Assembly (NCBI GenBank): GCA_965235115.1
Contig: OZ249436.1
Location: forward strand, 2,730,001 to 2,794,000
DNA length: 64,000 nt
Source: Laetmonice hystrix
Taxonomy: Eukaryota
Direction of reading: 5' to 3'
The position numbers and the translations under genes are program-made. The notes beneath the pieces are model-generated. The model had not been told where the DNA came from. It saw nothing but the letters and a program-made list of their open reading frames with translations, and ran no database searches. Shown piece by piece: positions 12,678 to 58,125 of the stretch (position 1 is its first letter; each line of letters begins with the position of its first letter).

Positions 12678-15508
12678 TCATCGCTTCTCTAGCTGGCGAA
12701 ATTTGCTTTCTGAAAGGAGTTCAAAAAGGAAAGTTATACCTTAATAACAAATGAGGTTAGGGCGAAAAAACATTTGCTGACAACTCAGTTGTCTTGATTT
12801 ATGACTGTGCAGGTAATTTAGTGTTATCCTCTGCACTTGGTATTTTTAGTAGAATCTGACAAAATCATGATAAGCAATCGAGTACTTATATAAGTAATTA
12901 AAAATATACTTCTTTTCTCTTCCTGTATGTTCTAGAAATAATCTACTAGAGGTCACATGCTTACCAAGCCTTTTGGAGTAGGCATCTAATTTATATGCAG
13001 CCTGTTCTAGACTTGCCACACTCTCTTCAACCTGATCAATTTGATCAAGGTATGGTTGTAGACTTGCATCTAGGAATTCAAGAAATAGTACTTGACATGT
13101 AAAACTGATAATTTGTTTATGATCTTTTTCTTTTACTGCCTCATATTACCAGGGGTGGAAAAATCCGGTAATCCGACACCAGGGACTAGCTTTTTTTCTG
13201 GTCGACCTACCTCCAAGAGCCAAGCAAATGCATTAGACTAGTCCGATGTAATGCCCTTTTTGCCCACAACACGACTCTGGGCAAGTGGCCAAAAGTTGGA
13301 TTTTTCTACCCCTGATTACCACAACATTACCACTCTCACAAATATTTTACTATGCCAATAGTTGACTTGTTGTTCCGCGTTTTCTCCTGGTGCTTTTATG
13401 CAATTCAAAAATAACAAATAGTTGACAAGCTTTCTCACGTTAGGCAGGATGGCGATTGAACTTCATGAGGAGAAATAGAGAATTCTATGCTGCAGAGGGC
13501 AATTTATGCCAGAAGAATACAGTAACCCCTTGAAATAAACTGCTTTACCTTTCTACAAGAGTCCTAACTAGAAGGAAAATGTATTCTTTATGAAATGCTC
13601 CTATCTCAGTACTCACACTTGTCATTGAGGTCAACCATTGCCTTGTGGATATTAACTCAGTACTCACACTTGTCATTGAGGTCAACTATTGCTTTGTGGA
13701 TATTAACTCAGTACTCACACTTGTCATTGAGGTCAACCATTGCCTTGTGGATATTAACTCAGTACTCACACTTGTCATTGAGGTCAACCATTGCCTTGTG
13801 GATATTAACTCAGTACTCACACTTGTCATTGAGGTCAACCATTGCCTTGTGGATATTAACTCAGTACTCACACTTGTCATTGAGGTCAACCATTGCTTTG
13901 TGGATATTAACTCAGTACTCACACTTGTCATTGAGGTCAACCATTGCCTTGTGGATATTAACTCAGTACTCACACTTGTCATTGAGGTCAACCATTGCCT
14001 TGTGGATATTAACAGCAATTTGTTTCATCTCGCTGTACTTTGTAATTGTCGTCCGGTTCATCTGTTCCAGCAGTTTGTAGTCCTCTGCTGTGCCTGAGGA
14101 GAATCAACACAAGTTGTCATGACGAGTATCATTCCTTATAATCCAAGCTTGGAGATCAATTTAACAATCATGCTTATAGATAAAGAATCCTTGCATATAT
14201 CTTAATGTAGAAAATTTTAACGACACCCTGAAAAATTAATATTTTTAAATGATTCCGACTACTTTGTTCTTTCAAAGGCCTTTTGTAATTTCCAGTGTTG
14301 TCGCCAGCTTTTTTTTGGCATTGCGGGCTGCTAAGCTGTGTATTTAGGCTGCTACGCTGTCTTTTAGGCCACTTCACTGTCTTTTGAACAGCGTAGTGGC
14401 AAAAACTTGTCTAAATTCAACAGAACCCACAGGAATACCAGTAAAATGCCGATCAGCTTGTGGCTGCAGGGAAAATATTATCAGAACTCTTCTGTATACA
14501 TGTGAAAACAATAAATAAAAGTCTCTTGACATGTTTTCCGTTTTCCAGAAATAATGAAAGATACCGTTTTAGTTACCCAATCCTCCCCAATCTACTAATC
14601 CACCTTCAAAATGATCTCATTGACCTCAACAATATTATACATTATCATGGCACCTACTGGCAAGTTCTCCTTGAAGGTATTCTCCTGTTTTCTGAAAAGT
14701 TTCATGACAGAGCTCAGTGACATCAGGTGGAGGAGGTTCCTTGGCCTCTGCTGCCGGTTCAACTACTTCAACTGATGCCGGGGTTGGTGGCTCTGACGAA
14801 GACATTTAAATCCTTGAATTCAACTTCAAAACTGACAAACATTAATAATTTGTTTCAAGAAAGGACATCTGGTAAAAATAAGTAAATTTGTATCATCATT
14901 AAATGAAGGCCTTATTCAGGACCTTACCCCAAACTCAGACTTATTTAGCCATTGCCAGCTAATATTTATAATGTTTTAATGGTTAATTCTGGCTTGATTT
15001 GTCCACAATAGCAATAGGCACAGTGACCAATAATAATTTTTTTTTAATGTGGTAATTTATGCCTAAATTAAATCCACCAGAATGCATCATTTTATGGAAA
15101 ATTTTAAAAAAAATTCCAGGGGAACGTGTCCCCGGACACCCCCCCCCCCCCCCTCCCTAGCATTGCTTCGCGCCGTCGGCGCTCACCATCACCCGCAAGC
15201 CTTTCACAAAAACTTGGCAGCCCTGCAGTTGCTGCACTTCCTGTGCCATTCATCATGATCATCCATCATGATCATGCCATTTCATCGGGGAGGGGAGGGG
15301 TGTATCTGTAGACTCTATCTCCGGTCGAAAAGTATTGCAATTAATGAGTTAAATATCGAATTAATCCTAATCACGCCGAGTGATAATAATGGTAGATCTT
15401 TTTGATGGTCCAGGCATATTAAACCATCACGTACTGTTTGTGTAGAAGGAAGCTAAATTACAAACCTGATGTTTCGCCACTTTGAGAAGTGTCTGCTGTA
15501 TCCGCCAT
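12678..15508 (-). CDS. BLOC1S2: BLOC-1 subunit 2 (BLOS2), 5 coding exons, ~144 aa
   Basis: Exons 15508-15466, 14792-14658, 14093-13974, 13069-12965, 12709-12678 with consistent phases: [17 protein letters not shown]...[43 protein letters not shown]...[45 protein letters not shown], matching BLOS2. Exon-2 acceptor choice is inferred. Confidence 0.92.
13150..13314. mobile_element. MITE, CAGGG termini, 5-bp TSD (attac)
   Basis: caggggtggaaaaatcc / ggatttttctacccctg; attac on both sides. Confidence 0.7.
13605..14013. repeat. 51-bp minisatellite x8 duplicating the BLOC1S2 exon-3 end and splice donor
   Basis: Minus-strand unit GTTAATATCCACAAGGCAATGGTTGACCTCAATGACAAGT|gtgagtactga; the first copy is the real exon end. 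Confidence 0.95.
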
Positions 15509-15842
15509 CTTGGTCTTGGACTGACGGAAAGGTCCCTTGTGAATTGAATAATAAAAATCTGCGAAGATTCCAAGTCGTGATACTGTTTACCGGAATTTCT
15601 ATAAAGAAATGTTCCCCCAAAAGTAGCCAGAAATATATTTTTCATAATAGAAAACACTTGTAATTGTTTTTGTCTGATATAAATTGATATTTGATATAAG
15701 CGGTCAAAGCGATCTCCGAAAAGGATCCGGAAATCAAAGGGGACCAAATAAACAAACGTGACTGTGTAGTTTATTTAATCTGTGTAGCCCTAGACGATTA
15801 TTTTGACCACACAGAAGTCAGTGCAGATATACATGTACCAAG
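15509..15842. promoter_or_regulatory. Bidirectional promoter BLOC1S2/RNF181
   Basis: Divergent ATGs at 15508 (-) and 15843 (+), 334 bp apart; ccggaa ETS-like cores near 15591 and 15727. Confidence 0.7.
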
Positions 15843-20521: not shown

Positions 20522-20715
20522 CACACGTGACCTAGGGGTCTAATAAAATGTACAACTACACGTGACCTAGGGGCCTAATAAAATGTATGGCTACATGTCA
20601 CATGTGACCTAGGGGTCTAATAAAATGTAGGACTACATGTCACATGTGACCGAGGGGTCTAATTAAATGTACGGCTACATGTCACATGTGACCCAGGGGT
20701 CTAATAAAATGTATG
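20522..20715 (+). repeat. 35-42 bp tandem repeat x5 in RNF181 3' region, each unit with a polyA hexamer
   Basis: AATAAA at 20542, 20577, 20619, 20703; ATTAAA at 20662. Confidence 0.85.
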
Positions 20716-23411
20716 GCCTTTTAAACTGGTGTACAGTATTATTCATTCCATTATAAAGTTTCTATTCAAATAACAATAGCATGGATGCCACCTGGGATTT
20801 GAAACAAAACATTTCCCTTCTGAGGCACCCTGAGTTTTTTCCGTGATTTTTTATGTCCCCCCCCCCCCCCCCCCCCATTCCCTTACTGGAAAAATGGAAC
20901 CTCATTTTCAAGGTTTTCCCTGATTTCCAGAGTGGATTGGAACCCTGAATGGTGTATTTGGGGCATTTTGTCTGAGCATCGATTTCTCGGATTTCGTTCC
21001 TCAAATCGGCCATTATGGGCTCTTCACTTAGCGGCGTCTCATTCTAACACGTAAAACTATGAACGCTTAGTCCGAGAGCCGTATTCGTCTTCGATTTAAT
21101 CAGTGTTTTGGTGAATATCTGAATTTAGCATGCTTGCGTGAGATGGACGCTGAATGTGGAAGTCACACGCTTAGGTCTGGGGTCTCGAGTATGATGACCT
21201 TCCGAGGATCAGCGTGTTCAGCTTCAGACATGTTGTAAAATGTAATTTACACGTATATATATACAGTAATTGTATACGAGGATGATAGGGATGGTAAGAA
21301 TATCAATTAAGGATTATAGGAGTGCATGCATTATCTTATGAATAATTATAACAATGTTACATTAAAGAGTACATTACCGCTCCACATATATTCGCATTGA
21401 ATATGGTAGAAAATGAACTTTTTGCACACGATACCATTAATGGTTAGTATTGGTAAATAATACGCCAGCGGATAGAAATGGTCAGGCTGAGCTGGTATAT
21501 TATATAGCCGCGATGAGGTGCCCGTTCCAGCCTCGGTATTAAGTCACTATTTGGTGCATGCATCTCACAAATTTATAACCTTCCAATGATGGGGAATACT
21601 GTGTATTTTATCTAGATAAGGTGAGGGGCTTTATTCACAAAGCAGATGCAAGAATTGTGTATGTACTACATGTATTACACGTTATAGGGAAGCTATTGAA
21701 ATTAAGTCAATAAAATGAAGTCCACGGTAATATGTTTACAGTGGCCAATTCTAGCAATGCTACAATTCGGGGACCACCAAAAAGAAGGGATGCCAATTCC
21801 AAGTGATTATCAACTACATATTTTTTTTTATTGCATTTTTTGGTATTTTACATCCGAACTTTACAATTTTCCACAGCCCTTTGCCACAGTTCAAAAAACC
21901 GCAGGACTGTACAAACACCAAATGAGAAAAGCGCTGATTCTGTTAACATCCTTGGTTCTTTGGATCAGATGCAAACTCTCAGGTTTCCGTGGGGTTTCCA
22001 ATCTTATGCCTCTTCCAAGTATACGGGTGGCACAAAACACGACCACCCACGAATAAATCACGTGCTACATCAGTTTAATGAATTGTATGGACACGTGGAC
22101 ATCCGACTCATTCCACTTAGAAATGGGAACCTGCCATTTCCTGCATATCTTAGGATGCAATGTGCAAGACGGTATGGCAAACTGTAGGATAAATGACTTA
22201 CATTTCCAGGTCATGATTTAAAGAAAGTTAAAAATGCAATGAATAGAAAATCCAATAGGATCTGCAAGCGTTCCTTGTTTATAGTCAAGATGCTTCTGCC
22301 ATCTGTTAAATTCAAAAAGGAATGCCTTCATCAAAGCTGTGAAGTCCGCCTTTGCCACTAATACCCCCCCCCCCCCCTTAGGTTACGAACAAAACGACAT
22401 CTTTCCGATAAAAAGTACACATACACTTTTATTTACGAGTTTCAACTTTCACAGGACTCACACCTTTCCGTTCTCCTCGACCAGTCCCGACAAACGACTG
22501 AGACATAATTATATAAAAAATAAAACCTCTGCTCTAACATTGATCGGATGGTCACAAACCCCACATAAAATGCAATGAAGAGTGCAGCACAATGTCACAC
22601 ATGATAAACGTCATCTTCGGGCGTCCTTGATCACCCGTCCTTGTATCATGCATGTCAAAAGACGTGAACTATATTACACAATACCATTGTCCATCACCAG
22701 GACTCGCACAGCACGGACTGGGGGAATCCAGTCCAGTGTGACAATCAAATATTAGGCCTGTCACACAACTTCAAGGTTGCCTTATGTTCTTGCTTTTGAA
22801 GTGATCTACCACCGCTGCTGTGTTAACCAAGGAACTACCAATGGGTAGAGATGATCAATGCGGGAACTACGACGCAGTGGCAAGCTCCTCAGCAGAAACC
22901 TCCTGAAACAGAACAGGTGAACTGGTAAGTGAACTAGTGACGATTCAACTCAAAAACATACATCAAAATATATCTTCAGAAATTTTGACAGTTGGAAATG
23001 CATCTCTTCACTGAACAAATGCTATTCGATAGATCCAATTTATCTCCAGATGCATTCAAACGGCACAAAATATATCCACATGCAGCACTAAAAATAAAAA
23101 GAGGCAGGGAGGCTACAATAAAAGCCCTTACTTTTTTCCCAGATTAACCAAAACTTTACTTGAAAGTCCTGCCAAGAAGAAAGCATGTCTAGCGTGTCAC
23201 GTCAACTGTACCTTGTTGCTTCCCTGACGAACAAGTTATTTAAATTCCCTGCTTTGTCTTTGCCATGTCACCAGTCACTTATTTATACTTTTGCTACAGG
23301 AGGGGATGGGGCCATTGAATTGTTAGTGCTGCCTTTCCTATTTCCCTACTCGTAAATATGAGGCACTAGTCCCTCACCTTGAGAGAAGAGAATGCTACGT
23401 GTCAAAGATGT

Positions 23412-32981: not shown

Positions 32982-33059
32982 GGTTATTACGTGTTGTGTG
33001 CTGCGCTTCTTCGCCGTGAGAGAACGAAATATATTGCCGCAGTGAGGAAGGAGCTTGTC

Positions 33060-33130
33060 GGCTATCACGTGACGACTCGGTTCTGTTTTGTGATTGGTCA
33101 GCAGCGCTGACGTCACGGGGGCGGGCGGCA
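33060..33130 (-). promoter_or_regulatory. Core promoter of the hnRNP gene
   Basis: E-box TCACGTGA (33065), CCAAT (attgg 33093), CRE TGACGTCA (33108), GC box (33117), ~85-145 bp upstream of the ATG. Confidence 0.7.
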
Positions 33131-33994: not shown

Positions 33995-34224
33995 TACTGT
34001 AGATATAGGCATAGACTGATAATAGGCATGGTAGGCTATATGCAGAGATGGCGCAGGCAATTAAAACAAGAACAAAACTACAGTATTAGTTCATCCCCTG
34101 CAAAAAGCCCCTACACAGTTTAGCGACGCCCCTGTCGGCCTGGGTGTGGGCGCATGTGAGTGGACGGAAAGAAGCGGGAAAACAGCATCTCTGGCCTGAC
34201 CCCTGGCGTGCAGTTGAGGAACCT

Positions 34225-38200: not shown

Positions 38201-41200
38201 TGACTACAATGACCTGATGGCCCGTGTGCGCCACCACGTCCTCACAACCAGATGCAGGGTATGGTAATCTGTTCACCTCGCATCATTGTAAAAAACCATC
38301 AGAGTCGTACCCCCTACCCCATCAGGGTTGGACAAATCCACTAGCCCGAGGTCCGGGACCTGCCTATTATTGCTTCGGACTTGTGAAAATATATCAATGG
38401 TAGTCCGACTCTTGCCCAGTCGTGGTTAAACCTACTGTCATTGACAGGTAGTATCTGTCAGGACCTGGTGCCAGGCATGTAGCAGGTCACAAACCTCCAC
38501 AGATAAGATATTCATCTAAATTAGGTACAAATATCGTTTTCCTGTGACCAAAAAAAAAACTATCAGATTTTACCTGCAAATTTCACAAGGAAATATTAAC
38601 CATTCTATAGCTAAGGACTCCAGCCAACATACAAATGTTTTCTATAGCTAAGGACTTCAGCCAACATACAAATGTTTTCTATAGCTAAGGACTCCAGCCA
38701 ACATACAAATGTTTTCTATAGCTAAGGACTCCAGCCAACATACAAATGTTTTCTATAGCTAAGGACTCCAGCCAACATACAAATGTTTTCTATAGCTAAG
38801 GACTCCAGCCAACATACAAATGTTTTCTATAGCTAAGGACTCCAGCCAACATACAAATGTTTTTAATAATTCAATTTTAGATTTTTTTTGTCAGTTTAAA
38901 TTCACTTTCATGGTACATGCTGTTTGGTTGCGTAAGGCTTTGTTTCATTTCTTCTTTGTCATTCATAGTCACCCTAGCACATTGGTAAAGACAACTAAAA
39001 GATTCTGCATCTTTTTGATATCTAAGTTTTGACACTTACAACAATGGCATCTTGGTGTCATTAGCATACAATGTGGGTTTGTTTGAACCATATCAAAAGC
39101 GACTGCCAGCGAGGCACAGCTAGTTGCTAACTTTAAGATTGTATAACAGTGACAGAGACAATGTGGGTTTGTTTGAACCATATCAAAAGCGACTGCCAGC
39201 GAGGCACAGCGAGATGCTAACTTTAAGATTGTATAACAGTGACAGATACAATGTGGGTTTGTTTGAACCATATCAAAAGCAACTGCCAGCGAGGCACAGC
39301 GAGATGCTAATTTTAAGATTGTATAAGTGACAACAGGACAGTTAGGGTTTCCTAGACAAAGGAGATGTTGCCTAATGCTATTTTCAGTAGCCTAATTATC
39401 ACACTGCACTGCCACATCCCAAGTCAAAGCTTTCTACATGAAAGGTTTGTGGTTGTGGCAGGGGTGGTGCACTCAAAGGGGAATGAAGTTAACATGAAAA
39501 GAGAAGATTACGATTTGTAATCTAATACAATATCCTTTTCTGTTGTTAAATAAGATGGCATTCTTTGTGTGTACAGTCATTAGACAGGGTGACTACAGCA
39601 CAGGGAAAACAGGGAAAATGATAAAAATAAATCCCCAGCAGGGAAAACACAGGGCATTTAGCCAAGGATAAAAATTAGCAAAAGAAAAAAGTCAGTGAAA
39701 AGGCAGAATTGTTGAATATTGAAGTTTATTTGAAGAGCTCCTGACTCAATACTATTAATGCCTAAGGGGGGAAAATCCCACTTGCAAATTGATGATGATG
39801 ATGGTAATCTTATTCAAAACGGCTGCCATATTTGATAAAATCACTGAATAGCAGCCATGTCGGATAATAGGACACAGTTTGAAGTTTGAAATTGAACTTT
39901 TTGTGGTCACCCTGATTAGAACAAGGGACATTCACAATAGGTAGAGTTCTGAGTAACAATCGTATGAAATTTCTTTTCTAACATAGATAGGTTTGACATC
40001 TTGTGTATTTTAGGTTCAAACCAGAATTAGAATAAGAATTCATTTAGAAAAATTAATAAATTAAAAATTATGGTATACTTCCTGGAGTCCTGGATCAGAA
40101 ACCCGAAGTATGCGATAAGTAACCATAAAATAATTCCTTCAGTCTGTGTATCCTTTGTATTCCGCAGGTTAATTCTTCCAAGACTTTAATTCCTTCAGTC
40201 TGCGTATCCTTTGTATCACGCAGGTTAATTCTTCCAAGACTTTAATCCCTTCAGTCTGCATATCCTTTGTATTCCGCAGGTTAATTCTTCCAAGACTTTA
40301 ATTCCTTCAGTCTGCGTATCCTTTGTATCACGCAGGTTAATTCTTCCAAGACTTTAATCCCTTCAGTCTGCATATCCTTTGTATCCCGCAGATTAATTCT
40401 TCCAAGACTTTAATTCCTTCAGTCTGTGTATCCTTTGTATCACGCAGGTTAATTCTTCCAAGACTTTAATCCCTTCAGTCTGCATATCCTTTGTATTCCG
40501 CAGGTTAATTCTTCCAAGACTTTAATTCCTTCAGTCTGCGTATCCTTTGTATCACGCAGGTTAATTCTTCCAAGACTTTAATCCCTTCAGTCTGCATATC
40601 CTTTGTATCCCGCAGATTAATTCTTCCAAGACTTTAATTCCTTCAGTCTGTGTATCCTTTGTATCCCACAGGTCAATTATTCCAACACTTTAATTCCTTC
40701 AGTCTGCGTATCCTTTGTATCCCACAGGTCAATTATTCCAACACTTTAATTCCTTCAGTCTGCGTATCCTTTGTATTCTGCAGGTTAATTCTTCCAAGAC
40801 TTTAATTCCTTCAGTCTGCGTATCCTTTGTATCCCACAGGTTAATTCTTCCAAGACTTTAATTCCTTCAGTCTGGGTATCCTTTGTATCCCGCAGGTTAA
40901 TTCTTCCAAGACTTTAATCCCTTCAGTCTGGGTATCCTTTGTATCACGCAGGTTAATCCAAGACTTTAATTCCTTCAGTCTGGGTATCCTTTGTATCACG
41001 CAGGTTAATCCAAGACTTTAATTCCTTCAGTCTGTGTATCCTTTGTATCCTGCAGGTTTGTGAATTCTTCCAAGACTTTGACTCATTGCGCAGTGGATCC
41101 ATCACCAGGGCTCAGTTCCGCCGAGGCCTCAGTGATCTTGGGCTTAGTGCCCTTGGCAATCATAACCTCACAGACAAACAGTTCCAAGTTCTTTGTGAAG

Positions 41201-44200
41201 CCTATGTTGAACCCACAATGCCAGACAAAGTTCATTGGACCAAATTTACTGAAGATGTTGAAAGTGGTAAGGTTCTTTTTCTTAGGAGAGTATTTAATAT
41301 CTTAAAAAGAAAATTTTTTTTATATGTGCATTTTTTTTTAGAGTTTGAGCATAAATTTATACCTAAATCTATACAAACCCCTGTATTGCTAATGTGCAAT
41401 ACTAAATGGAAAACGGGGAAATCAGAATAATTTTCCATTCATTTATTTTTCAGTGGTGACACAGCGTAACCTGGAGAAGAACCCATCCCATCAGGTTCCA
41501 CCATCAGAGATATTCCTGGTGCCGAAACCAGGCACCATGGACTGGAGGAATGCATCTCAGGACCACATAGAGAAGGTGGACCGAATCATGCAGCGTCTAC
41601 GTCAACGAGCCAATCAGAGACGGGTCCTACTGAAACCTACCTTTCAGGATTTTGATAGGTAACACCCTCATTACATCCTGGATATTAACTTTGACAGGTA
41701 ACACCCTCATTACATCCTCCACATTAACTTTGACAGGTAACATCCTCATTACATCCTCCACATTAACTTTGACAGGTAACATCCTCATTACATCCTCCAC
41801 ATTAACTTTGACAGGTAACACCATCATTACATCCTCCACATTAACTTTGACAGGTAACACCATCATTACATCCTCCACATTAACTTTGACAGGTAACACC
41901 ATCATTACATCCTCCACATTAATTTTGATAGGTAACACCATCATTACATCCTGCACATTAACTTTGACAGGTAACACCATCATTACATCCTGCACATTAA
42001 CTTTGACAGGTAACACCCTCATTACATCCTGCACATTAACTTTGACAGGTAACACCATCATTACATCCTGCACATTAACTTTGACAGGTAAAACCTGCAG
42101 TATATCCTGCACATTAACTTTGACAGGTAACATCCACGTTATACCCCCCCCCCCCCCCCCCCCATCCCCACCAACTGGAATTTAATTACTAGCTGTGGGT
42201 GGGCCTGTAGCTGTGCCAACAAATCGGACCACCCCACCATGCCAGTACCGGTACACAGTAAACCATAAATAACCCTTTGACCAGTAAACCAAAGAGAAAA
42301 GATTAGCTCGATATCTAGACCATATAAAAGAACAACTGACGTAATTTGATACCCTAAGTAGTTTATGTTAATGTGGTGGCAGAAGCATTTCTGGAGGACT
42401 TAGAATTAAGTTGTAAATTTGAGATATTGAGATTGTGGCTGCACTTATTGTTAGCCTATGGTAATAAGGAAAGCCCTGATGCCAAACTGTTTGAGACATG
42501 CAGACTGTATACCTAGGCCTACACAGCTGATGGTGTTGATGGCTATTGTCTGTACCAGCATTGAATATAGTCATGTAATGGCAGCAAACTTGGTCATCAC
42601 TGGTTGAACAATGACTACCAGTCAGACGCCCTGATTGGAGCCCTCAGTGGTGCTGCAGGCATGGTCTACATGAAGGTCATCACTGGTTGAACAATGACTA
42701 CCAGTCAGACGCCCTGATTGGAGCCCTCAGTGGTGCTGCAGGCATGGTCTACATGAAGGTCATCACTGGTTGAACAATGACTACCAGTCAGACGCCCTGA
42801 TTGGAGCCCTCAGTGGTGCTGCAGACATGGTCTACATGAAGGTCATCACTGGTTGAACAATGACTACCAGTCAGACGCCCTGATTGGAGCCCTCAGTGGT
42901 GCTGCAGACATGGTCTACATGAAGGTCATCACTGGTTGAACAATGACTACCAGTCAGACGCCCTGATTGGAGCCCTCAGTGGTGCTGCAGGCATGGTCTA
43001 CATGAAGGTCATCACTGGTTGAACAATGACTACCAGTCAGACGCCCTGATTGCAGCCCTCAGTGGTGCTGCAGGCATGGTCTACATGAAGGTCATCACTG
43101 GTTGAACAATGACTACCAGTCAGACGCCCTGATTGGAGCATGCAGCATGAAGGCAGTCCGCATGGAGCACTGCTGGAGTACCGGCTGTAGCTGTCATGTG
43201 AGGGTTGGGGTGGGGGGGTGGGGGGGTTTGTACAATGCAAGGTAGTTACTGTCTATAAGTAATGGAAGTTAAATATTACAGAGTTCTAAAATTATTGCCT
43301 GAGATTCCATGTTGACATAGTGGAGTGTGACTGATAAAGGGACCTAGCGTGAATAATAACTCCCAAGAAAAATGATGGCTTTCTCTTTCTGTGTTGTTTT
43401 TCATTTTTACACAAATCATACATGTGATGTTTTATTTTCTTTCATTTAAATGTGTAAAAGAAAGAAGAGTTGTGGACACGAAAATAAAATAAGGGGGGAA
43501 AAAAAAATAAGCATTATAAGCTAGTTTTTTTCTATGTTCCCTAATCAGGTTTTCCCTGTTCAGCGTCATTTTGAGATGTTCTGCTTGAATCCTGATGCAG
43601 ACACAACAACGGCCACGTGACAAGGCCGCAGTTCCGGCAGTGTATGACGATGCTGGAACTTCTCCTTACCGAGTGTGAAATGGAAACCCTGGAGGCGAAG
43701 TTCTGTAATGACACTGGTTTCAACTACCTGGCCTTCTTGTCTGAGCTCCAGCCCACTGATCCAACCAAGATGATGTACCCGGAGCTGAGGCAGCAACAGG
43801 CTACCATGAACAAACGGAGACCTGAGGTTAACGTGTCAACTGACCTTGAGAGTATCTTGGTGAAGATTAAAACAAAGGTGAGCATGACATTGATCTGGGA
43901 TACGGTGGGAACACATCAGTTTGGATGTGTTCAAAGATCAACTGATGATATTGTAGAGGTTAGATTAAGGGAGAAACAAGAGAACGATGCCTTGATTTGA
44001 TTTAACTACCAATATGACATCCAGAATCTGATGGTATTTCTTTAGCGATAAAAGAGATCACATATTCGTTATCACTAAAACCGACCACCAATTTCATGGA
44101 AATGGTGTCCAGATATCCATGTATACCGGGGTACATTACCAGATCATATGACGTACAATGTGATTGCCGGTACCTATTTTATTGTTCTTTCCACTTCATT

Positions 44201-46235
44201 ATCTACAGAGAGGTATTCCTACATGATTTGTGTGTGTATTGTAGGTTTTTAAAAACCGAGTGCGCGTACATGAATGGATGAGGGACTATGATAAACTTCG
44301 CTCAGGACGTATTGCTAAGAGCAACTTTCGACGGGCCTTGGATTCCTGTCTATTTGAGTTGGCCGAGTCAGAGTTAGCTATCCTGGAACATCAGTATGTA
44401 TTTGATATCTACTTTTTGTCACAAAACTTGAGCTAACCAGTGAAGTTATTTTTTCACCAATAAGGAGTCTATAGATCCACTATATTGCTAGTAAAAACGT
44501 CATTATAAAGCTGTAGAGGTCGTAGAAATATAGGTTGTATTTGTAAGAATTAGATATAACAGAAGAAGAAATGAATGAAATGAGAATAATGTGATAAGTT
44601 GAATTATTTCTATTCGACAGTTACCAGAGTCTAGAGGACCCAGATTTTGTCAACTGGTGCACTTTCTCCGACGAGATCGAGTCAATGTTCACTGTGAAGA
44701 ACCTAGAGAAGGCGCCGTTACTGGTCGTCGACCAGTTCAAACCTCCTGAGGAATGGAAACAAAACAATCTGTCTCCTGACATGGAGCAAATCCTCACCAA
44801 CTGTATGGAACGACTGGCTCAGAAGGTGAGACAACTCACTGCTAGCTCCTATATGTCCTATAGTGTGCTCCACTGAAATAAGTACTTAGTTTACATTGAC
44901 GTTACATGGAGCAAATCCTCACCAACTGTATGGAACGACTGGCCCAGAAGGTAAGACAACTCACTGCTAGCTCCTATATGTCCTATAGACAATAATAGTG
45001 TGCTCCACTGAAATAAGTACTTAGTTTACATTGTACGTTACATGGAGCAAATCCTCGACAACTGTATGGAACGACTGACCCAGAAGGTGAGACAACTCAC
45101 TGCTATAGTGTGCTCCACTGAAATAAGTACCAGTAGTTTACATTGTACGTTACATGGAGTAAATCCTCACCAACTGTATGGAGTGACTGACCCAGAAGGT
45201 GAGACAACTCACTGCTAGCTCCTATATGTCCTATAGACAATAATAGTGTGCTCCACTGAAATAAGTACCAGTAGTTTACATTGTACGTTACATGGAGCAA
45301 ATCCTCACCAACTGTATGGAGCAACTGGCCCAGAAGGTGAGACAACTCACTGCTATAGTGTGCTCCACTGAAATAAGTACCAGTAGTTTACATTGTACGT
45401 TACATGGAGATCCTCACCAACTGTATGGAGCAACTGACCCAGAAGGTGAGACAACTGACTGCTATAGTGTGCTCCACTGAAATAAGTACCAGTAGTTTAC
45501 ATTGACGTTACATGGAGCAAATCCTCACCAACTGTATGGAGCAACTGACCCAGAAGGTGAGACAACTGACTGCTAGCTCCTATATGTCCTATAGACAATA
45601 ATAGTGTGCTCCACTGAAATAAGTACCAGTAGGTTACATTGTACGTTACATGGAGCAAATCCTCACCAACTGTATGGAGCAACTGACCCAGAAGGTGAGA
45701 CAACTCACTGCTAGCTCCTATATGTCCTATAGACAATAATAGTGTGCTCCACTGAAATAAGTACCAGTAGTTTACATTGACATTACATGGAGCAAATCCT
45801 CACCAACTGTATGGAGCAACTGACCCAGAAGGTGAGACAACTCACTGCTGACTCCAGTTGTCATGTCCTCTAGCAGGGGCATAGCCAGGATTTTCTGAGG
45901 GGGGGGGGGGAGATCTGCGACACACTTTATTTTTCCATGATCAAAGCGTCCGCTGTGTCTGATGAAGATATTGTTTACAGGTGAGGAAGAATCGTATACA
46001 ACTCTACCCACTGTTTGAGGACTACGACCGAGTTCACAACGGTACGGTATCTCGGTCCCAGTTCCGGCGTGTCCTCAGTGAGCTCGACTTGGCCAGTCTG
46101 GTGGCCACAGAACAAGAGTGGGTTTGTATGTGGGAGAAGTTTGATGTCAAGGTGGGCGGCAAGGATGATGTTAATTATATCGGCTTCTGTGATCTCATCT
46201 ACAACCTGGCCCACTTTGAATGGAGGAAACCCTAA
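35277..46235 (+). CDS. Large four-repeat EF-hand protein (~924 aa), probably ciliary/axonemal
   Basis: 15 phase-consistent exons: 35277-35394, 35706-35907, 36102-36267, 36398-36604, 36722-36989, 37198-37271, 37374-37493, 37784-37949, 38107-38258, 41056-41266, 41454-41658, 43601-43877, 44245-44393, 44621-44825, 45981-46235. Eight recurrent F.D(F/Y)D....G.(I/V)...QF units followed by VNY..F motifs. Confidence 0.88.
38603..38862. repeat. 37-bp minisatellite x7
   Basis: ttctatagctaaggactccagccaacatacaaatgtt. Confidence 0.95.
39068..39330. repeat. 90-bp tandem repeat x3
   Basis: acaatgtgggtttgtttgaaccatatcaaaagcgactgccagc... at 39068, 39158, 39248. Confidence 0.9.
39585..39914. mobile_element. 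MITE, CAGGG termini, 6-bp TSD (attaga)
   Basis: cagggtgactaca / tgtggtcaccctg; attaga on both sides. Confidence 0.7.
40131..41080 (+). repeat. 56-bp minisatellite (~16 copies) duplicating the exon-10 splice acceptor
   Basis: Unit ttccttcagtctgcgtatcctttgtatcacgcag|GTTAATTCTTCCAAGACTTTAA; the last copy is the true acceptor of exon 41056. Confidence 0.95.
41650..42132 (+). repeat. 39-bp minisatellite (~12 copies) duplicating the exon-11 splice donor
   Basis: Unit tttgacag|gtaacaccctcattacatcctccacattaac. Confidence 0.95.
42592..43140. repeat. 83-bp tandem repeat, ~6.5 copies
   Basis: ggtcatcactggttgaacaatgactaccagtcagacgccctgattggagccctcagtggtgctgcaggcatggtctacatgaa. Confidence 0.95.
44779..45850 (+). 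repeat. ~110-138 bp tandem repeat x9 duplicating the exon-14 end and donor
   Basis: catggagcaaatcctcaccaactgtatgga...cagaag|gtgagacaac at ~44780, 44905, 45041, 45153, 45291, 45403, 45511, 45648, 45786. Confidence 0.95.
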
Positions 46236-47772: not shown

Positions 47773-48031
47773 CCACTAGCCTGGCGGCTAACTTGGAGAA
47801 TACGTACAGCCCATCAGTCCACACTGCCCGTTACGGGCGCCCACAACGCCACCCTGCCCAGTGGTCCGTCAAACAGGTGCACAGGGAGTCCATGCATACC
47901 ACTAGATGGCGGTAGTTTCGATTTGTCACCAATGCATGCTTTTGCAGTAGGCTGGACCGCTGGCGCCACCTGCCAGTCAAGTTTTCAACACGGACTTCAT
48001 GACCATAATTAAGCAGCCGCCATCTAGTGCC
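47773..48031. promoter_or_regulatory. Cluster of CTCF-like motifs
   Basis: ccactagatggcgg (47899,+), ctggcaggtggcgcc (47962-76,-), gcactagatggcggc (48016-31,-), weaker ccactagcctggcggc (47773). Confidence 0.55.
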
Positions 48032-48984
48032 AGGCATGTACACTAACATTTCACCCTTTGAGAGAGAGACAGATAGACAGACAGACAGGCCGAGGCAGAG
48101 ACACAGACAGAGAGCGAGAGAGAGATAGAGACAGGGACAGAGAGTTGGAAGTGGGAAATAATTAGCCAGTCACAATGTCCTATAGCGCCTACGCATGGCG
48201 TTTCTCCCATTCTCCGACTTTTTCTCATTTGTGAAAATATATATTATAGGGCTACTACAGTAAGGAAAGTAGCACCAACTGCGTCAGTCGTTTCTAATAA
48301 AGATAGGCAATGGGGTGGGGTGCGAGAGCCCCCACTAAGCTAGATCGTACCAGAATCCAGACTTCAGCCCCCTCCCCCCTTAAAATCTGGATGATATACA
48401 TTTATTAGGCCTAGGTCTACGAATAACATAGAGAGAGAGCCTATAGATGTCTCGAGCCCCGGGCGCCTTGCACAGTGATTAACCCCCCCAACCCTAGCCC
48501 CCCCCCCCAACCCCCAATCCCAAAATTCCTGGATCACCCCTTGGAACTATCAGGCATTAGACCAAAGCCTGTAGTCCTAGTGTCCGACTCTGCCTTCTCT
48601 GGTTCTTGAAATTCTTGTTCTTGAAAAGGCCCTGGACCAACAACGGTCATTATACCATTTAATTCCCATCGTGTTTGCAGATTTATACTAGATTAAAACG
48701 TCACCCCCTCTCCTGTGCCCCCCCCCCACCCCACCCCGACCGAGTGCTCCCGTTTGGTCAGGCCTGCCCCCCCCCCCCCCCGATCAAGTACTCCCGTTTG
48801 GTCAGGCCATGCTCTCCCGAGCTGCTTTGAGTGACCAGGTGGAGTACTGGCTCAATCCAAACGCTGTGACGTCACTTACACGGAAATCCAATCAGTGAAA
48901 TTGGTGACAAACCGAGGCAAAGTGCCGCCGACCCTTTCTGACAGAAGGTTTGCCAGGACTACAATGCAAATGGAGACCGCCAAA

Positions 48985-51900
48985 ATGTCGACGAATTTTC
49001 CTCGGAGACGGTCGGTAAGTTGATTTTATAACTAACGAGTACATGATATATACACCGACATCGTCATGGATAGGTAGGGTAGTTTCCCAGGATATTACAC
49101 CCGTCATTTACAGCCTGTTTGTCTGCTGGTCTTTTCGGACACGCAGACTCGCCACGTGTGAGGTCAGACTGCCTGTCTTTGAAATCTGCCAAGGCTTGAA
49201 CCTGTATAACGTCTGCACTTGTTATACCATAGGGTCTAAATGTGAACAAATTCAGTAAAGGAAAGTTCGGTAAAGAAAACAACCTCAACAATGAGAACTC
49301 GAATACATTATATTGAAAAGTGAACCGACATTCACCAAAACATTTTGAGTATTTATAGTTCTCTTGGATACACCTCGGACGCCCGGTGAAGGCGTCAAGG
49401 CCACTGGCCGCTCGTATAGGTGTTCGTTACATCATGGACTTTGATTCACTTCTCTGTTTGCTCTGCTGAATAACTTGAGGCGGGTTCTCGGACGGTTAAA
49501 GCTGGCACGGCCCATATTTGAATTTCGTATACCTGTCTCGGCGGTATCGCCGTGTCGGGGATCCTATAACGTTCATCAATCTGTGGCGAATAGTGCGGGG
49601 CAATAAAATAAGATACCATCAGCAAGAACAGCTAGGGAACAGAAAGCCGTGTGTAAGATAACATAAGATACAATCGGCAAGAACAGCTAGGGAAAAGAAA
49701 GCCGTGTATAAGAAACTAAATTAGAAGAAACGGTTTCAGGATTCTGAAAAGGCTGATATGTGTTCATATGTATAAAAATGACATCAGATCACAGAGTCCT
49801 CCTTATGGACGTGTTCTTCCCCTGCAGAAGGACAATCGGATTTGTCGGTTTTTCATCAGTTGGCGTGGATGCCGGGAGGGCAATGAGTGTAACTTTCTCC
49901 ACCCGTTGGATGCTCCGAGATGCAAGTTCTTTGGGTAAGGATGAGGGGGAAATGTACGTGTACCCTGAACGAGTCTCTATGGCTCTCATGTAAAAGGTTA
50001 CCATGGTTATATCATTGTTAAAAAAATATAAGGTTCACAAATCTGTTATCATATACACACGAAGAAACATGATAAGATAAGTTTCCCGCCAGAAGATGTG
50101 ATACACTGTAGTTGTATGTAATGGTCACCGTCTGGCTACAGGACCAAGCGTGGTTGCCGCAGTGGCCATTGGTGTCGCTACCTACACGGCAGCCCAGGCT
50201 CTGGCCCTCCTGATGCGGCCTCGTCTTTCTTCAAGAAGCTTGACCAGGCTCTAGGGCCGAAGACAAGCAAGGTACTGAAAAATACTCTTTTTTCCACATT
50301 TTTTCGAGCTACAGCAGTGCGATAACGTGACGGTGTGATGCCATAATCAGGGTTCACAAAGGGTCTGGAAAACATAATTTTCTGGAAAGTCATGGAAAAG
50401 TCATGGAACTTTGCAAAACTTCCAAGTCCTGGAGAATTCATGGAATTTTAACACTCTTGACATCGATTCTTTCTTTTTTTTTGTCGTTAATAAATATGAC
50501 TACTCTCTTATATATTGGTTTTGTAAGAAATACTTTCTTATAGAAACTTAGATATTCCTTTTGGTTAAAATTCTATTTTATATTTGTCAGGAATTATAAT
50601 GGTAGTTTTAAGGTACCCAAAATATCGATAGTCATGTTCCTTCTGTCTGGAAATTTAGCTTTTGTTCTAGAAAAGTCATGAAACTTTTTTCTCAGATTTT
50701 ATTGGGAACTCTGATAGTATGCCCTCGGTTACGCTTCGAGTATATTATCACGTTATATTGACAATGTCTCGATCTCACGGCGTCATGCACTATCTATTAC
50801 ATCTGCCCGAGGTGCCGTTGTTATAGTCTATTATAGAAGACTGTTTTCTGGAGAGGGTGGACGAGACTGCTGACGATGAAGATGTCGAGTACCATGGTAC
50901 TGACCGGCGGTCAAGGGGCACACAGACCGACAGACAACCCGAGTTCATCTACTGTGGTATGAACCTGAAACAGGGAGAGTGGGGTGCGAGGGAATGTGAA
51001 CGAGAGAGGGGTGGGGGAGGTAGGGTGGGGAAGGAGAAAGCGGGAGAGGGGTGGAGAGAGAGATAGAGAGGGAGTGCGGGGTCGGGGGGGGGGGTCGGGA
51101 TGGGTGGATGGAGGGAGGGGAAGGGGAAAGCGAGAGAGGGAAAAGTTTAACAAAGAATTGGATCGTGTGTGAGTGAGAATAGAAGACCAGCATATTGAAT
51201 GTCAACTTACATCCTAATAAGTTCATAACATGTCAGTTTCTGGTCTGCTAAACGTCTGGATCTAGCACCAAGTTTCCTATTATCATATTTCCTATTTCAC
51301 CAGAACCAAGACCAAAAACTTGGTGGATGTCGGTATATTTCAGGGGAGTGTGGGGAGGAGTTTAAATACGGAAGGACCGTGTACCAGAGCCTACAGCGAC
51401 ACTACATTGACAAGCTGGCCGGGGCCGACTACCAGCATCTCCGATTCTTCAAGTGTAACTCACAGCTACGTCGGAATGATGCATACTGCACTGCTTGTGG
51501 AGAGGTACAGACACAAATGGTCTGGTGCTATTGGTGCGATAGCCCGATATCGCACGGTCTTTGACATTGTATTCATGAAGTCAATCTGGTTAGATTCCCA
51601 ATACTTGTGTTAAAGCTCAAGTTGAGGGAATATGGCGAGCGATCTCAGACAGACAATGCTCTGGTTTTCTGGGCATGGGGAGGGCGGGGGGGTTGTGAAA
51701 GAGATAGCGTAGAGGATATGATACCCGTTCTCGAAGGGCCTGAGAGGCCTCTCCCAATCAGGTTTAAAGGTGCTATTCGTCTCGCACAGAATGGCATTTC
51801 TCCTATCATACATTGTGCACATAGTACTAGAAAAAATTCCTACCGATACCATTGGCCTGATGAACCTTCTATTAGTCTGTGAGCAGCATTTGAGCCATTT

Positions 51901-54900
51901 CCTATGGTGGGGTGTGTTAGGGTCTCCCCAGGCCTTCTGAGAGAGCCCCATTTGTGCCGTTATCCATGAAAAATTTTGATTTCCTTTGTTGTGAATCTAT
52001 TTCCATGATAGGTGGGATCACATAAACGTCAACAAAATAAAAAATAAAAAAATTGAACTTTTTTCCACGAATAGCACCTTTAATATAATAGGATTCATCA
52101 TTTTTGATGACAAATGTTGGGTCCCGAAATGATGGCAGATGTCCCTCCCCGTTCCCATTGTACTTGTACACGTGTATGTGATGTGTTTGTGACAGTGGTT
52201 TCGGTCCGTGGAAGGACTCCTGCAGCACATGGGTAGTCGTGTGGCCGGAATCTCGGTATCAAGTCTGCAGGTCGAACACCAGAACTTCTTTAAGAAACTC
52301 ACGGAGCCTTTTGTCGGTAGGTGTGGGTTCCATTCACCCACGTATCGTTTAGCCCACCTTCTTGTGGCTCCATATTGATCAATTGTGCAACTTTATCTGC
52401 TGTATGTGTGTAAAATGTCAGTAAAATGTCTAGTGGTTTTGTGTAGTGTAATAACCAACATTTATGTCGTTAAGATCGCGACTTGTCGCTGTCTGGGGCC
52501 GAGTTTGATACCATTGGAATCATTCGAGAACTCTACTTCGTGGAGAGAGACGAAGTGCCGGTGGGGGAGGTAGAAAAAGAGGTTTGTGTTCATGAAAATA
52601 ATCAAATATTGGTAATCCGGAGCAGATTATGCCAAATAGTAGGCGTACGTGTCAAAGCATCACAAGATCCGGACCTCGCTAAGTAGGAAATACATTTACG
52701 GTACTACAAATCTCTTTTGATGTACAATTTATTTGAATCTGTAATGTTTTCTTATTAAGGGGGCTACATCAAAGGTTAAGGTCGCCCAGAAGAAGGAAGG
52801 AACAACTGATGCTAACAACAATGAGATGAAAGCGGTCAACATCAAGTGTGGTAAGGACGGTCATTTTCTATGTTAACGTACTTACGAGATTGAGGGGCGA
52901 GAACAGGGATAAGATGAGGATTAGGTGTGGGGTATAGGATTAGGTGCAGGGCTATATTACTTATGGGGCTATAGGAGCAGGTGTGGGGCTATAGCAGTAG
53001 GTGCGGGGCTATATTAGTTATGGGGCTATAGGAGCAGGTGTGGGGCTATAGCAGTAGGTGCGGGGCTATATTAGTTACCTTAACGTTTCTTTTGCCTGTC
53101 GGTAGGCCTCTACATGAGAGTTGATTCCTGCCTTTAAGCGAAGAAGTTAAGGAAATCTCCGTTTGTTTTGCTCTGTGGGACTTGAGTTGGTAATCTCGCT
53201 GTTACTCCCTGCCTCAGTCGGACTCTGTCTGCTCCAGGTGAATGTGGCCAGGATTTCTCCGAACCCAATCTCTATGACAACCTCCAGCGTCACTACATGG
53301 ACCAATTCGGACGAGCTTGTTATGACCATATCAGTATTTTCAAACGGAATAAAGACTTGCAGGGAGAGGTGTCTTGTGCTGCCTGCGGTAGGGTAAGTGT
53401 ACACAGTGTCTTGTGCCGCCTGCGGTAGGGTAGGTGTACACAGTCCTTGCATACGCCCAAGCCAGCTGATTTTAATCCTGTATTGTCGATATGTCAGAGA
53501 CAGAGAAGCGTGGGAAGGGGAGGCCAATTGCTTTATAATTTTACATTTTCCTCTGCTCGCCAGTTGTTCGCGTCAGCCGTCGGCCTTCTGCAGCATCTTG
53601 GCAGCAAGCTAGATTCGCTCCAGCCGCACTCAGTTGAGTCCCACAGGACAATCTTCTGGATCATCACTGACCCCTTTGTTGGTAAGCAAGAACTAAACCT
53701 TCGAATATTACTGCTATACATGTAAATATCACTTTTTTTAAATCAAGTTTCCATATCACTTAAACAACATAACAGAAGTTTAAAATACGATACTACAGAG
53801 GGCAGTCAAGACCGTCAGAAACGGAGTGTTCACGAGAGAATTCAGTCCTCTACCTGATTGAAAATATGTTAAAATGTATAAAATGCTATTTGGCGTTCAC
53901 AGAGCGTGACATTGGCCTCATCACGGGAAAGGAGTCGGTGATCGTTCAGCCGTTGCTCCCCATCCTACACCGCCACCTGGTGGACTCGCCCAACAAGAAG
54001 CCGTCTACAGTCGTTGATTACAGCGTCGACTACAAGGAGAGTGACGATGAATCCCTGCACATGGCTGAGTACTTCAGGTAGACCTACACTCAGCTAGAGT
54101 CCCAGTACGCATACACACAGAGTCACAGTACCCATACACTCAGCTAGAGTCCCAGTACACATACACTCGGCTACAGTCCCAGTACACATACACTCAGCTA
54201 CAGTCCCAGTACACATACACTCAGCTAGAGTCCCAGTACACATACACTCAGCTAGAGTCCCAGTACGCATACACACAGAGTCCCAGTAGGCATACACTCA
54301 GCTAGAGTCCCAGTACGCATACACTCAGCTAGAGTCCCAGTACCCATACACTCAGCTAGAGTCCCAGTACCCATACACTCAGAGAGTCCCAGTACACCTA
54401 CACTCAGCTAGAGTCCCAGTACGGTAGAGTCCCAGTACGCATACACTCAGAGAGTCCCAGTACACACACACATAGTCCCAGTACGCATACACTCAGCTAG
54501 AGTCCCAGTATGCATACACTCAGAGTCCCAGTACACATACACTCGGCTGGAGTCCCAGTACCCATACACTCAGCTAGAGTCCCAGTACCCATACACTCAG
54601 CTAGAGTCCCAGTACCCATTCACTCAGAGAGTCCCAGTACCCATACACTCAGCTAGAGTCCCAGTACCCATACACTCAGCTAGAGTCCCAGTATGCATAC
54701 ACTCAGAGTCCCAGTACACATACACTCGGCTGGAGTCCCAGTACCCATACACTCAGCTAGAGTCCCAGTACCCATACACTCAGCTAGAGTCCCAGTACCC
54801 ATACACTCAGCTAGAGTCCCAGTACGCTAGAGTCCCAGTACGCATACACTCAGAGTCCCAGTACGCATACACACAGAGTCCCAATACCCATACACTCAGA

Positions 54901-57826
54901 GACTTCAGGCTTGCTCCCCCCCCCCATCCAGGTATCCTTTGACACCCCTGTTAACAAGGAGGGATAATGATAAACATACTTCCTAATATACTTAGCCACC
55001 ACAGTGCAGTAGGCTTCGTACCACTCCACGCAGTTACCATGTACCTGTGTTCACTGTAAAACGTTTTACTTTGTTCTAACCCACTGAAATGACGTCCAAT
55101 GGACATGTAAGACAGATCCTTGCAATTTCTACTGCGAATAAACGTACACCACGTACACACTACGTACTAGGAACGTAGGTTGTGCAGGCGTGATGCGTAA
55201 TGCGTATTCATCAAAATCAATGAAAATAAGTTGCAGTGATCCCATATGTGCGTAATGCGTTGTTTTGATTACGCACTACGAAATCCGCACTTTCGGACAC
55301 ATGGATTCTTGGCTTTTGACCTTTATTCTTACGGACCACCAGTAATTTTGATGGTTTTGTTCCGTTTCCAGCAAGGTAAACGCCCATCGGGCTAAGATGT
55401 CGAAGAAAGAGTATGATGACGACGAGAGAGAGCGGTCTCTCCACGAGGGGTTTACGAAGGCTGAAGTTGACCAGCTTCATAGTAGGGGTATGGAACCCCA
55501 CAGCCCAGGAGCGTTCGAGACTCTAAACGTCCTTACCAGCAGCAGCGGCGACGGCGATGAGAACACACGCGCAGCCAAGAACCACAGACGGAAGACCAGC
55601 AAGACGTCATCATGGTTACGATCGCCTCAAGCGAGGAAGGACAGTCTCGTTTTGTATGAATCCCAATCTCCCGGGAAACAATCGACCCCTCAAAAGAAGC
55701 CGCTCTTCCCCGACACCAGTATCAATGAGGCGGACACAGAAGGCGAGAAGAAGGACGACATGGGGGAAGCTCGGGTGAGGAGGAACAAGAAGAAGAGACC
55801 ACGAAAGAGAAAGGGCTCCAAGGGTGACGTCAGCCAAACAAGTGCTGACGAGGTCAAGGAGGACGGATCTTCAGAGCCGGAGAAAAAACAAGGGTCAGAA
55901 GTGGCTGAGCAAAATACTACTGGGCAAAGGTCAATTGACGACACAGCTGAACCAACTGTGAAACCTAAAGTAGGAACCAGTAAGCCAGAACCTGAATCAC
56001 CTGGAAAAAGTAAAGATCGAACTGGGTCCCCTAGAAAGAGTGACAAACCAAAATCAAAGGATCAAAAGCCTGCCCATGCGGCAGCCATAAAGGCTAGTAA
56101 GGGGGACCAACCCGGACAACACATGAAGGCTAAGAAGGATGATATCACAGAACAAAGTCCAAAACCAAAAAAGGGTGACCGAGTCAAGGTCACTCCAAAG
56201 CTCAAAAAAGGCGGTCAGGCAGAAAAACCGACTGAGGATAACAAGGGCACGAAAGCTGCTCAAGGGCAACAGGTGAAGCAATCCCCAAAGCCTGGTCCAG
56301 CTACTGCTGAATTAGAAAAACCAAAAACCAAAAGAGAAAAGAAAGGCCCAAGGCGTGGTAGAAGAAGAAGTAGTACAGATGGTAAAACCGATAAAAATAA
56401 CGTGACTGGAAGCCCAGGGTTCGAACCCAGTACGTCACAATCTGAACGTAACAGCCCGGCCATAACTGTCACGGAACCGGATGCTAGCGTTGCGTGCGCA
56501 GATCCGGATTCAAAGAGTGATGAGGTAAGGAAGAGTCCTGACTCCGAGACGGTCAGTGAGCCTACACCTACCGATCAAACAGGTACCGAGGTAGGAGAGT
56601 CGGCCCAACCAGAGGATTCCATCAAACCAAACAATGAGGATGATCACACAGCAGGTGAAGTGAAGGCAGATGTCATAGTTGACAACCAGGAAGAGAAAAT
56701 CGAAGCCTCAAAAGCAACCACTTTGGAAACTATTGAGGAAGCGCATCAGTCCGAGAAATGCGTGGTATTCAGTGTTTATGGAAAGTTCGATAGCAGTAAT
56801 TCAGAGAGAGATCCTGAGGATGTTGTGAAAGATGTCAAAGACAAGTCTCATGATGACACAACACCTGCTCCAAGTAGTATGGCAGCTGGGGTTGATCTGG
56901 GCACACCAGAATGTCATCCCTCGGCTTCCCAAACGATGCAATCAGCAGTAGAGTCAGGGGATTGTCAGATGACCGCCACAAACGATGACTCGGCAGCAGC
57001 CATGAAGAAGGAACAAACAGCCACAAAAAGTGACTTAGCAATGCCCAAGGAGGATGACCAAGCAGTGGCTGAAAATCCGAACGAAAGCAGAAGTTATGCA
57101 GACGCGGTAACCAAAGGCCCCGGATGTTCGGATGATGGAAGCTCAGCACACACAAAATCTGGTCCTCACTGTCAGGACTCTGTGAAAGTAACAGTAGCTG
57201 ACTCCCTCACTAAACAGGCATCGCCTACAGCTGACGGTGGTGAAGTGCCAGGTGAGTCTAAATCTATGTCAGAAAACGCCTGTAAGCAAGAAGATCCCCC
57301 AAACTCGGCCAAAGATGGGGAAAGCCCCTCCGATAAGAAACATAGCACCCCACAGGAGGTCACCAGACCGTCTGTCCAAACTGAACCGCTCGTTTCAACA
57401 ACAGAATCGTTAGAGGAGGTTATACCCAACCAGTCGATGGCAAAGATCGACCAGGTTGAAGACAGGAAACGGAAGTCAGATGAAGAGCAGACCTACGGCT
57501 CCGTCACAAATGGAGGGGGCTCTCTGAAAGAAGAACCCACAACTGATGACGACCAGAAAGCCGATGCTTGGACACTTGTTGGTAAAACAAAAAGACGTGC
57601 AAAAGACCGAGGGGTCAAAAGTTCAGCTGACACAACGGACCAAGAGGTTGAGCGTTCACTGGAGCCGTGCAGCTCCCCGGACATGGACGAGGAAGCCCAG
57701 CCCACGGCCACGTGTACACAGGAGGAACACGTGGAGACACTGACCGAGGTCAAAAGTCAAGAGGAGCCAGGAAAGGCGGACCACCAGGATACTGGAGGAG
57801 AGGAAGCAGCGTGTGAACTGGCCTGA
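48985..57826 (+). CDS. Uncharacterised zinc-finger protein: 2x CCCH, duplicated Cys/His (C2H2-like) module, long charged low-complexity tail; ~1259 aa
   Basis: Phase-consistent exons 48985-49014 (in-frame ATGs also at 48964/48970), 49828-49934, 50142-50271, 50827-50956, 51344-51504, 52196-52316, 52475-52581, 52760-52850, 53238-53392, 53564-53681, 53903-54077, 55372-57826; CRFFISWRGCREGNECNFLH and CKFFGTKRGCRSGHWCRYLH; CRE/CCAAT at 48867-48892. Confidence 0.82.
50349..50714. mobile_element. MITE, CAGGG termini, degenerate 5-bp TSD
   Basis: cagggttcaca / tgggaactctg; ataat vs atagt flanks; internal gtcatggaa repeats. Confidence 0.6.
51768..52079. mobile_element. Kolobok-type MITE (312 bp), TTAA TSD
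   Basis: TTAA-AGGTGCTATTCGT ... ACGAATAGCACCT-TTAA; second copy at window start. Confidence 0.85.
54083..54900. repeat. ~28-bp minisatellite starting just after a splice donor
   Basis: catacactcagctagagtcccagtaccc and variants. Confidence 0.95.
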
Positions 57827-58125
57827 TGGAAGGTCGCTTACAATGTGATGCTGCGGTGTGAACTGGCCTGATGGAAAGGTCGCTTACAATGTGCTGCAGA
57901 ACCAGTTAGAAAGTCTGTGAACTGGCCTTACAGAAAGATCGCTTTCAATGTGTTGCTGCAGTACAAACTGGCCTAATGGAAAGATCGCTTACAATGTGAT
58001 GCTGCAGAACCAGTTAGGAAGTCTGCGAACTGACCTGATGGAAAGTCGCTTACAATGTGATGCTGCGGTGTGAACTGGCCTGATGGAAAGGTCGCTTACA
58101 ATGTGATGTCGCAGAACCAGTTAGC
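57811..58125 (+). repeat. Degenerate ~46-60 bp tandem repeat spanning the zinc-finger gene stop codon
   Basis: gtgtgaactggccTGAtggaaaggtcgcttacaatgtgatgctgc repeated ~6 times. Confidence 0.85.

Follow-up and report, generated by a model that had tools for sequence, protein, structure and literature searches.

The window, by which is meant the whole 64-kb stretch of DNA that was analyzed, is animal DNA with a GC content of ~41% and contains six protein genes. Gene models were built by hand, and coding boundaries were taken as those with open frames and GT/GC-AG ends. The models for BLOC1S2, a conserved multi-EF-hand gene, and a CCCH/C2H2-like zinc-finger gene are open throughout and have GT-AG ends, with one GC-AG exception. 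The other three genes are a RING-finger gene, a macroH2A-like gene, and an hnRNP-like gene, which we take from their translations to be RNF181, macroH2A, and hnRNP A/B, respectively. The first two of these models are partial, and one acceptor was corrected in the third. Coordinates of the principal genes and arrays are given in Table 1.

Table 1. Principal genes and tandem arrays of the window (window positions).
Feature	Position	Strand	Description
BLOC1S2 gene	12678..14805	-	4 coding exons, 134 aa; open model; exons 2 and 3 match Pfam BLOC1_2
Multi-EF-hand gene, conserved	35277..46235	+	15 exons, 924 aa; contains four arrays at boundaries and three confined to introns
CCCH/C2H2-like zinc-finger gene	48964..57826	+	12 exons, 1266 aa; long low-complexity last exon; reading frame only
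51-bp x 8 array, BLOC1S2 exon 2 donor	13605..14013	-	Unit of 39 exon and 12 intron bases; true donor follows 13974, with 7 extra donors
35/42-bp array, ~4.7 units	20522..20717	+	AATAAA in 4 units; 169 bases past RING-finger gene stop
56-bp x 17 array, EF-hand exon 10 acceptor	40131..41079	+	17 acceptors, the last real; exon starts at 41056
39-bp x 12.4 array, EF-hand exon 11 donor	41651..42132	+	Includes 8 exon bases; true donor follows 41658, with 12 extra donors
109-138-bp-unit array, EF-hand exon 14 donor	44779..45849	+	Includes 47 exon bases; true donor follows 44825, with 8 extra donors
20-bp x 3 array, EF-hand gene stop codon	46229..46289	+	Stop 46233-46235; inside the part covered by an RNA-like contig
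37-bp x 2 duplication, zinc-finger exon 9 donor	53369..53444	+	Donor after 53392; second after 53429
27-bp array, near miss, uncounted	54085..54827	+	Begins 8 bases into the intron past the donor at 54077
Composite 46/61-bp array, zinc-finger predicted stop codon	57811..58129	+	Stop 57824-57826

Genes of the Window

Pfam confirmed the BLOC1_2 and RING domains, and the EF-hand and CCCH matches fell below curated cut-offs. In BLOC1S2, the exons that flank the array at 13605 match consecutive parts of the BLOC1_2 domain. A search with one exon of the EF-hand gene yielded 96 homologs among 131 candidates. The spliced protein shares 69% identity with its best matches and 62-64% with the proteins of Owenia, Lingula, and Capitella. 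Its 14 junctions and its C-terminus are all colinear in each of the six homologs displayed. A quick tree built from 28 of the 96 homologs places it with proteins of Capitella, Ridgeia, and Dimorphilus (SH-aLRT 96), which makes an annelid the probable source of the window. The GC-AG intron lies after exon 8 of this gene (37949-37951), at a junction colinear with homologs. For the zinc-finger gene, the donor and stop codon are predicted from the reading frame alone. The last unit of its array at 57811 is open in another frame for ~30 codons (58073-58165), and the gene's true C-terminus is therefore uncertain.

The hnRNP A/B-like gene, on the minus strand, contains two homologous 128-base RRM exons (30098-30225 and 30270-30397) separated by 44 bases. 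The two exons look mutually exclusive, since inclusion of both would shift the frame. The same gene has an apparent 3′ UTR intron and a small exon-like extra piece, at 23380-22900 and 26530-26580; a 3′ UTR intron together with a small extra exon is the arrangement of RNA-binding genes that are autoregulated through nonsense-mediated decay (NMD).

Other features of the window include three copies of tRNA-Asp(GTC) with shared flanks, two in minus and one in plus orientation (59416-59487, 60059-60130, and 60837-60908), and a telomere-like short inverted repeat at 60349-60390, in which four copies of GGGTTA precede their complement. A MITE-like, high-copy element with terminal inverted repeats and TTAA flanks is located at 51763-52083, and a second, cut copy occupies window positions 1-200. 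The summed contig depth of the element is 250,000-400,000, as compared to ~60 for single-copy DNA.

Tandem Arrays and Their Positions

Tandem Repeats Finder (TRF) returned 66 rows, which were merged into 32 distinct arrays with a period of at least 11 bases, simple repeats being excluded. Together, these arrays occupy 12,070 bases (12.1 of 64 kb). A coding boundary lies inside seven of them (four donors, one acceptor, and two stop codons), and the remaining 25 touch none. The seven boundary arrays are found in three genes, namely BLOC1S2, the EF-hand gene, and the zinc-finger gene. A second array finder run over the window produced no additional boundary case. The window is array-rich except for 17.9 kb at 20718-38602, over which TRF gave no array; this interval holds the hnRNP-like gene along with the EF-hand gene's first half. 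CpG depletion did not separate the array-rich from the array-free genes of the window.

Eight arrays, all said to straddle an mRNA-processing boundary, formed the core of the original prediction. Each was recovered to within a few bases, and seven do straddle such a boundary. The eighth, at 20522, had been included for its polyA hexamer, which shows no enrichment among the arrays: those with AATAAA on either strand number 2 of 32 against 2.5 expected, which is chance level. The hexamers in this array are nevertheless the first of their kind past the RING gene's stop codon and plausibly provide a putative polyA signal. It was also claimed that the gene-side copy is intact and that the extra copies extend into the non-coding side. 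This is true but dictated by geometry, since tandem duplication of any segment that spans a boundary gives this arrangement, and the polarity does not constitute independent evidence.

The five splice-site arrays consist of 2-17 head-to-tail copies of units 37-138 bp in length. They display three features of a "mirage" (head-to-tail units, an exon-intron boundary spanned by the unit, and duplicated splice signals), that at 53369 by reading frame only. The arrays at 46229, 57811, and 20522 are situated within last exons or shortly past them and span no exon-intron boundary; they share the geometry of mirages, yet are not mirages by definition. At the unit junctions of the arrays at 13605, 40131, 46229, and 53369, the overhang is 1, 1, 1, and 2 bases, respectively. 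In the other three boundary arrays, partial units are long or the ends are ill-defined.

Frequency of Arrays at Coding Boundaries

To obtain expected numbers, each array was collapsed to one unit and re-placed under 11 null variants. Across these variants, 1.8-3.5 boundary arrays were expected in the one window, as compared to the seven seen (P 0.0015-0.036). When arrays were placed window-wide or within gene bodies, 1.8-2.7 were expected (P 0.0015-0.013), and confining arrays to their own gene raised the expectation to 2.9-3.5 (P 0.01-0.036). A stricter, intron-by-intron null is less favorable: 5 of 13 intronic arrays straddle a boundary against 2.5 expected (P 0.053). With respect to the enrichment over randomised positions that the original prediction set as a test, the data hint at, but do not establish, boundary overlap of 2-3 times expectation, with P from 0.002 to 0.05 depending on the null, in one selected window. 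All of the enrichment statistics are post hoc and, since this single window was picked for its boundary pattern, the P values are optimistic.

Boundary types differ in their contribution. Donors (4 seen, 1.0 expected) and stop codons (2 seen, 0.15 expected) give a pooled count of 6 against 1.15 expected (P 0.001), and acceptors match expectation (1 seen, 1.0 expected). Taken alone, the presence of four donors among five splice arrays is not significant (P 0.19). An array occurs at most 320 bases downstream of the stop codon for five of six stops (P 0.002; threshold-free P 0.004). Arrays at 864-1690, 1903-3138, and 12226-12365, shortly past the stops of the macroH2A-like gene and BLOC1S2, are part of this clustering. 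Intronic arrays tend to lie nearer the donor end, with a mean relative position of 0.33 (P ~0.02 under a simple, too generous null). Finally, arrays lying wholly within coding sequence number zero, as compared to ~4 expected.

A selective filter can only remove arrays, so an excess at boundaries is not explained by the filter. One way to account for such an excess is that duplications are born preferentially at the 3′ ends of exons and in the first few hundred bases past stop codons, and are then tolerated. Mirages would then mark a mutational process linked to transcription or RNA processing, for instance DNA damage or slippage, and would be more than survivors of duplication at random places. 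In favor of this proposal are the pooled excess of donors and stops, the clustering of arrays past five of six stops, the lean of intronic arrays toward the donor (under its generous null), and the further array that begins just past the donor at 54077. The same counts, however, come from a single pattern-selected window and from statistics picked after the data were seen, the intron-conditioned null and the share of donors among splice arrays both fall short of significance, one of the two stop codons is predicted from frame alone, and the hnRNP gene is free of arrays over 9.6 kb. On balance, a bias in origin is doubtful. If true, the mirage class would widen, through the stop-codon arrays, to take in 3′ ends and, if the lean toward donors and stops held genome-wide, the birth of minisatellites would be tied to gene structure.

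Splice Sites in the Extra Copies

Splice sites were scored with matrices derived from the 40 donors and 42 acceptors of the window itself, and by this measure the extra sites score like real ones. GT is kept in 28 of 28 extra donors and AG in 16 of 16 extra acceptors. With ~0.14 substitutions per position and 10 positions, intact dinucleotides in all 44 sites are not statistically significant. If used, every one of the 44 would lead to an in-frame premature stop, such that the resulting transcripts would be lost and no new protein made.

Conservation of the splice motifs above background was not found in the five arrays: there are 5 distinct substitutions in 40 motif positions (5.7 expected) and 39 in 273 positions elsewhere (P 0.49), the latter including a few false substitutions from two misaligned rows of the 44779 alignment. 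The motifs mutate at the rate of the rest of the unit and hence bear no sign of selection. The exon-derived parts of the extra copies have also drifted. For example, 4 exon bases are lost in all 16 extra acceptor units of the 40131 array, and distal units of the 44779 array alter codons that are kept in the first unit. The units of the arrays carry variants in patterns, among them a repeated block of units at 40131.

Several other consequences of the extra sites were considered and rejected. In-frame extension of the protein by the 51- and 39-bp units is prevented, since reading into the intron meets a stop after 8 and 1 bases, respectively. Recursive or ratchet splicing through AG-GT units is disfavored because the donors regenerated by the acceptor array are all weak, scoring -2.7 to 3.9 where the median is 8.2, and because AG-GT is frequent at ordinary junctions of the window (20 of 40 donors and 10 of 40 acceptors). 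Intron gain by the Rogers model is countered by the premature stop that follows every extra site and by the 41651 units, whose acceptor scores are poor (-1.5 to 3.0, where the median is 6.9).

Evidence from Read Contigs

Contigs from four runs (X1-X4) of one sample, none recorded as RNA, were compared over 45860-54080. Those of X1-X3 cover 30 of 30 bins, introns included, and are DNA-like. In contrast, X4 covers 9 of 30, corresponding to 45979-47376 (the last EF-hand exon and 3′ UTR) and the high-copy repeat, with a trace in one more bin. Exons of the zinc-finger gene within the compared region are not covered by X4, which carries no information on expression. The loose end of the X4 contig before 45979 contains an 18-mer whose one occurrence in the window is at 44806, within the first unit of the donor array at 44779. 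We read this contig, a single one from a run of unrecorded kind, as a spliced transcript in which the gene-side donor was used and eight copies were skipped. A putative transcript junction can thereby be assigned to an individual unit, as the original prediction had envisaged, for this array. Here, the second donor outscores the first (11.1 and 9.7, respectively), such that use of the most upstream donor over a better downstream copy is seen in the 44779 array alone. Contigs drop rare forms, and minor use of the other donors could be missed. An RNA-like contig attests to normal splicing for one of the five splice arrays.

These observations bear on the second proposal of the original prediction, in which the extra sites are functional decoys that send a copy-number-dependent share of transcripts into NMD, thereby tuning expression. 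Site scores equal to those of real sites, intact dinucleotides, and universal premature stops are compatible with such a role, and use of the two nearest pseudo-sites is reported for human 6-16 and CBS (PMC1557585). Premature stops, however, are expected from any intron-derived extension, motif conservation does not exceed background, and the RNA-like contig employs the first donor. Moreover, the mechanism is impossible for the stop-codon arrays, and the host genes have no evident theme in common. The proposal has therefore gained no support, and a decoy function is very improbable.

That the assembler created or inflated the arrays is scarcely credible: the arrays at 13605, 20522, 40131, 41651, 44779, and 57811 do lie outside the region of contig comparison, and the four runs, being of one sample, may be the assembly's own, but the patterned unit variants (including the repeated block at 40131) argue otherwise, contigs end at 46258 in X2, X3, and X4 and restart at 46260 in all four runs, a break that fits a real 20-bp array in the reads, and a 37-base skip, as from loss of a unit at 53369-53444, was found in none of the 10 joints shown. 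Within the latter array, at 53386-53409, X1-X3 yield a half-depth variant contig with three base differences and a 2-base gap.

Interpretation

The arrays are probably "mirage"-type minisatellites, a by-product of frequent, short, local duplication that is purged from coding sequence and tolerated at exon edges. A local-duplication process filtered by selection was the first of the two proposals in the original prediction, and it fits the absence of wholly coding arrays, the 25 arrays that lie off boundaries, and the drift of the extra exon parts.

Such arrays would arise as follows. A single-copy segment of 20-140 bp would be duplicated head-to-tail and then expanded by slippage or unequal exchange. 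Copies falling wholly within coding sequence would be eliminated, consistent with their absence from the window, where intronic, UTR, and intergenic ones are common. If the duplicated segment spanned an exon edge, its geometry would leave the exon whole on the gene side, with further copies pushed into the intron or 3′ UTR. The spliceosome would stay with the exon-adjacent site, as the X4 contig indicates for one array and as is presumed for the other four, and the array would be spliced out or reside in the UTR. The advantage of the exon-adjacent site would be the reason that arrays are tolerated at exon edges. Extra copies would then drift, as those of the window have done without visible constraint. 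In the acceptor array, the last site must beat 16 upstream sites; the likely reason is exon definition, an established basis for acceptor choice.

The window is a dense example of a described type of repeat in another phylum, and in practice it calls for caution when genes are predicted and reads are mapped. In addition, the genome holds many natural cases in which the choice of a splice site among near-identical ones could be tested.

Comparison with Known Systems

Mirages were reportedly first described in amphioxus by Canestro et al. in 2002. According to two later papers, they duplicate either exon boundary in tandem, leave splicing undisturbed, and have an origin that is called unclear, and they are hosted by Adh3, troponin C, the globins BflGb6 and BflGb9, and PGBD5 (PMC3087553, PMC3902484). 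The arrays of the window resemble these amphioxus elements in that units span a donor or acceptor, many splice signals are intact, and several arrays occur per locus, and unit lengths fall within the 10-160 bp range given there. Normal splicing is reported for the amphioxus mirages, whereas the RNA-like contig represents one array alone. Further differences are the host, a probable annelid, and the occurrence of mirage geometry at two stop codons. A literature search, with most subscription journals outside its reach, found no genome-wide test of boundary enrichment, no report of annelid mirages, and no stop-codon version.

Human genes provide parallels for the donor arrays. At a 37-bp VNTR in intron 7 of human F7, the choice of donor is oriented, with only or mainly the most upstream site used, and other donor cases include 6-16, CBS, lamin B2, and PDGF (PMC1557585). 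As in F7, the first unit supplies the real donor, and F7 likewise has identical pseudo-donors downstream. The human cases given there are single loci, whereas 64 kb here contain five such arrays, four at donors and one at an acceptor, and the scanning mechanism proposed for F7 is described as tested in mammalian cells only.

Internal tandem repeats at the exon-intron boundaries of human duplicated genes, along with the Rogers model of intron gain, are treated in PMC2812944 and PMC3087553. As in those human repeats, the minisatellites of the window multiply splice signals; unlike in the Rogers model as set out there, they produce no new intron or protein extension. With respect to origin, microhomology-mediated tandem duplication is described as the copying and expansion of single-copy segments, mostly neutral and depleted from coding regions (PMC13167724). 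The arrays share this coding depletion; the overlap at the junctions of four boundary arrays, however, is only 1-2 bases, which does not demonstrate dependence on microhomology. Set against these systems, the stop-codon arrays and the lean toward the 3′ ends of exons are the only fresh points, the rest being already known.
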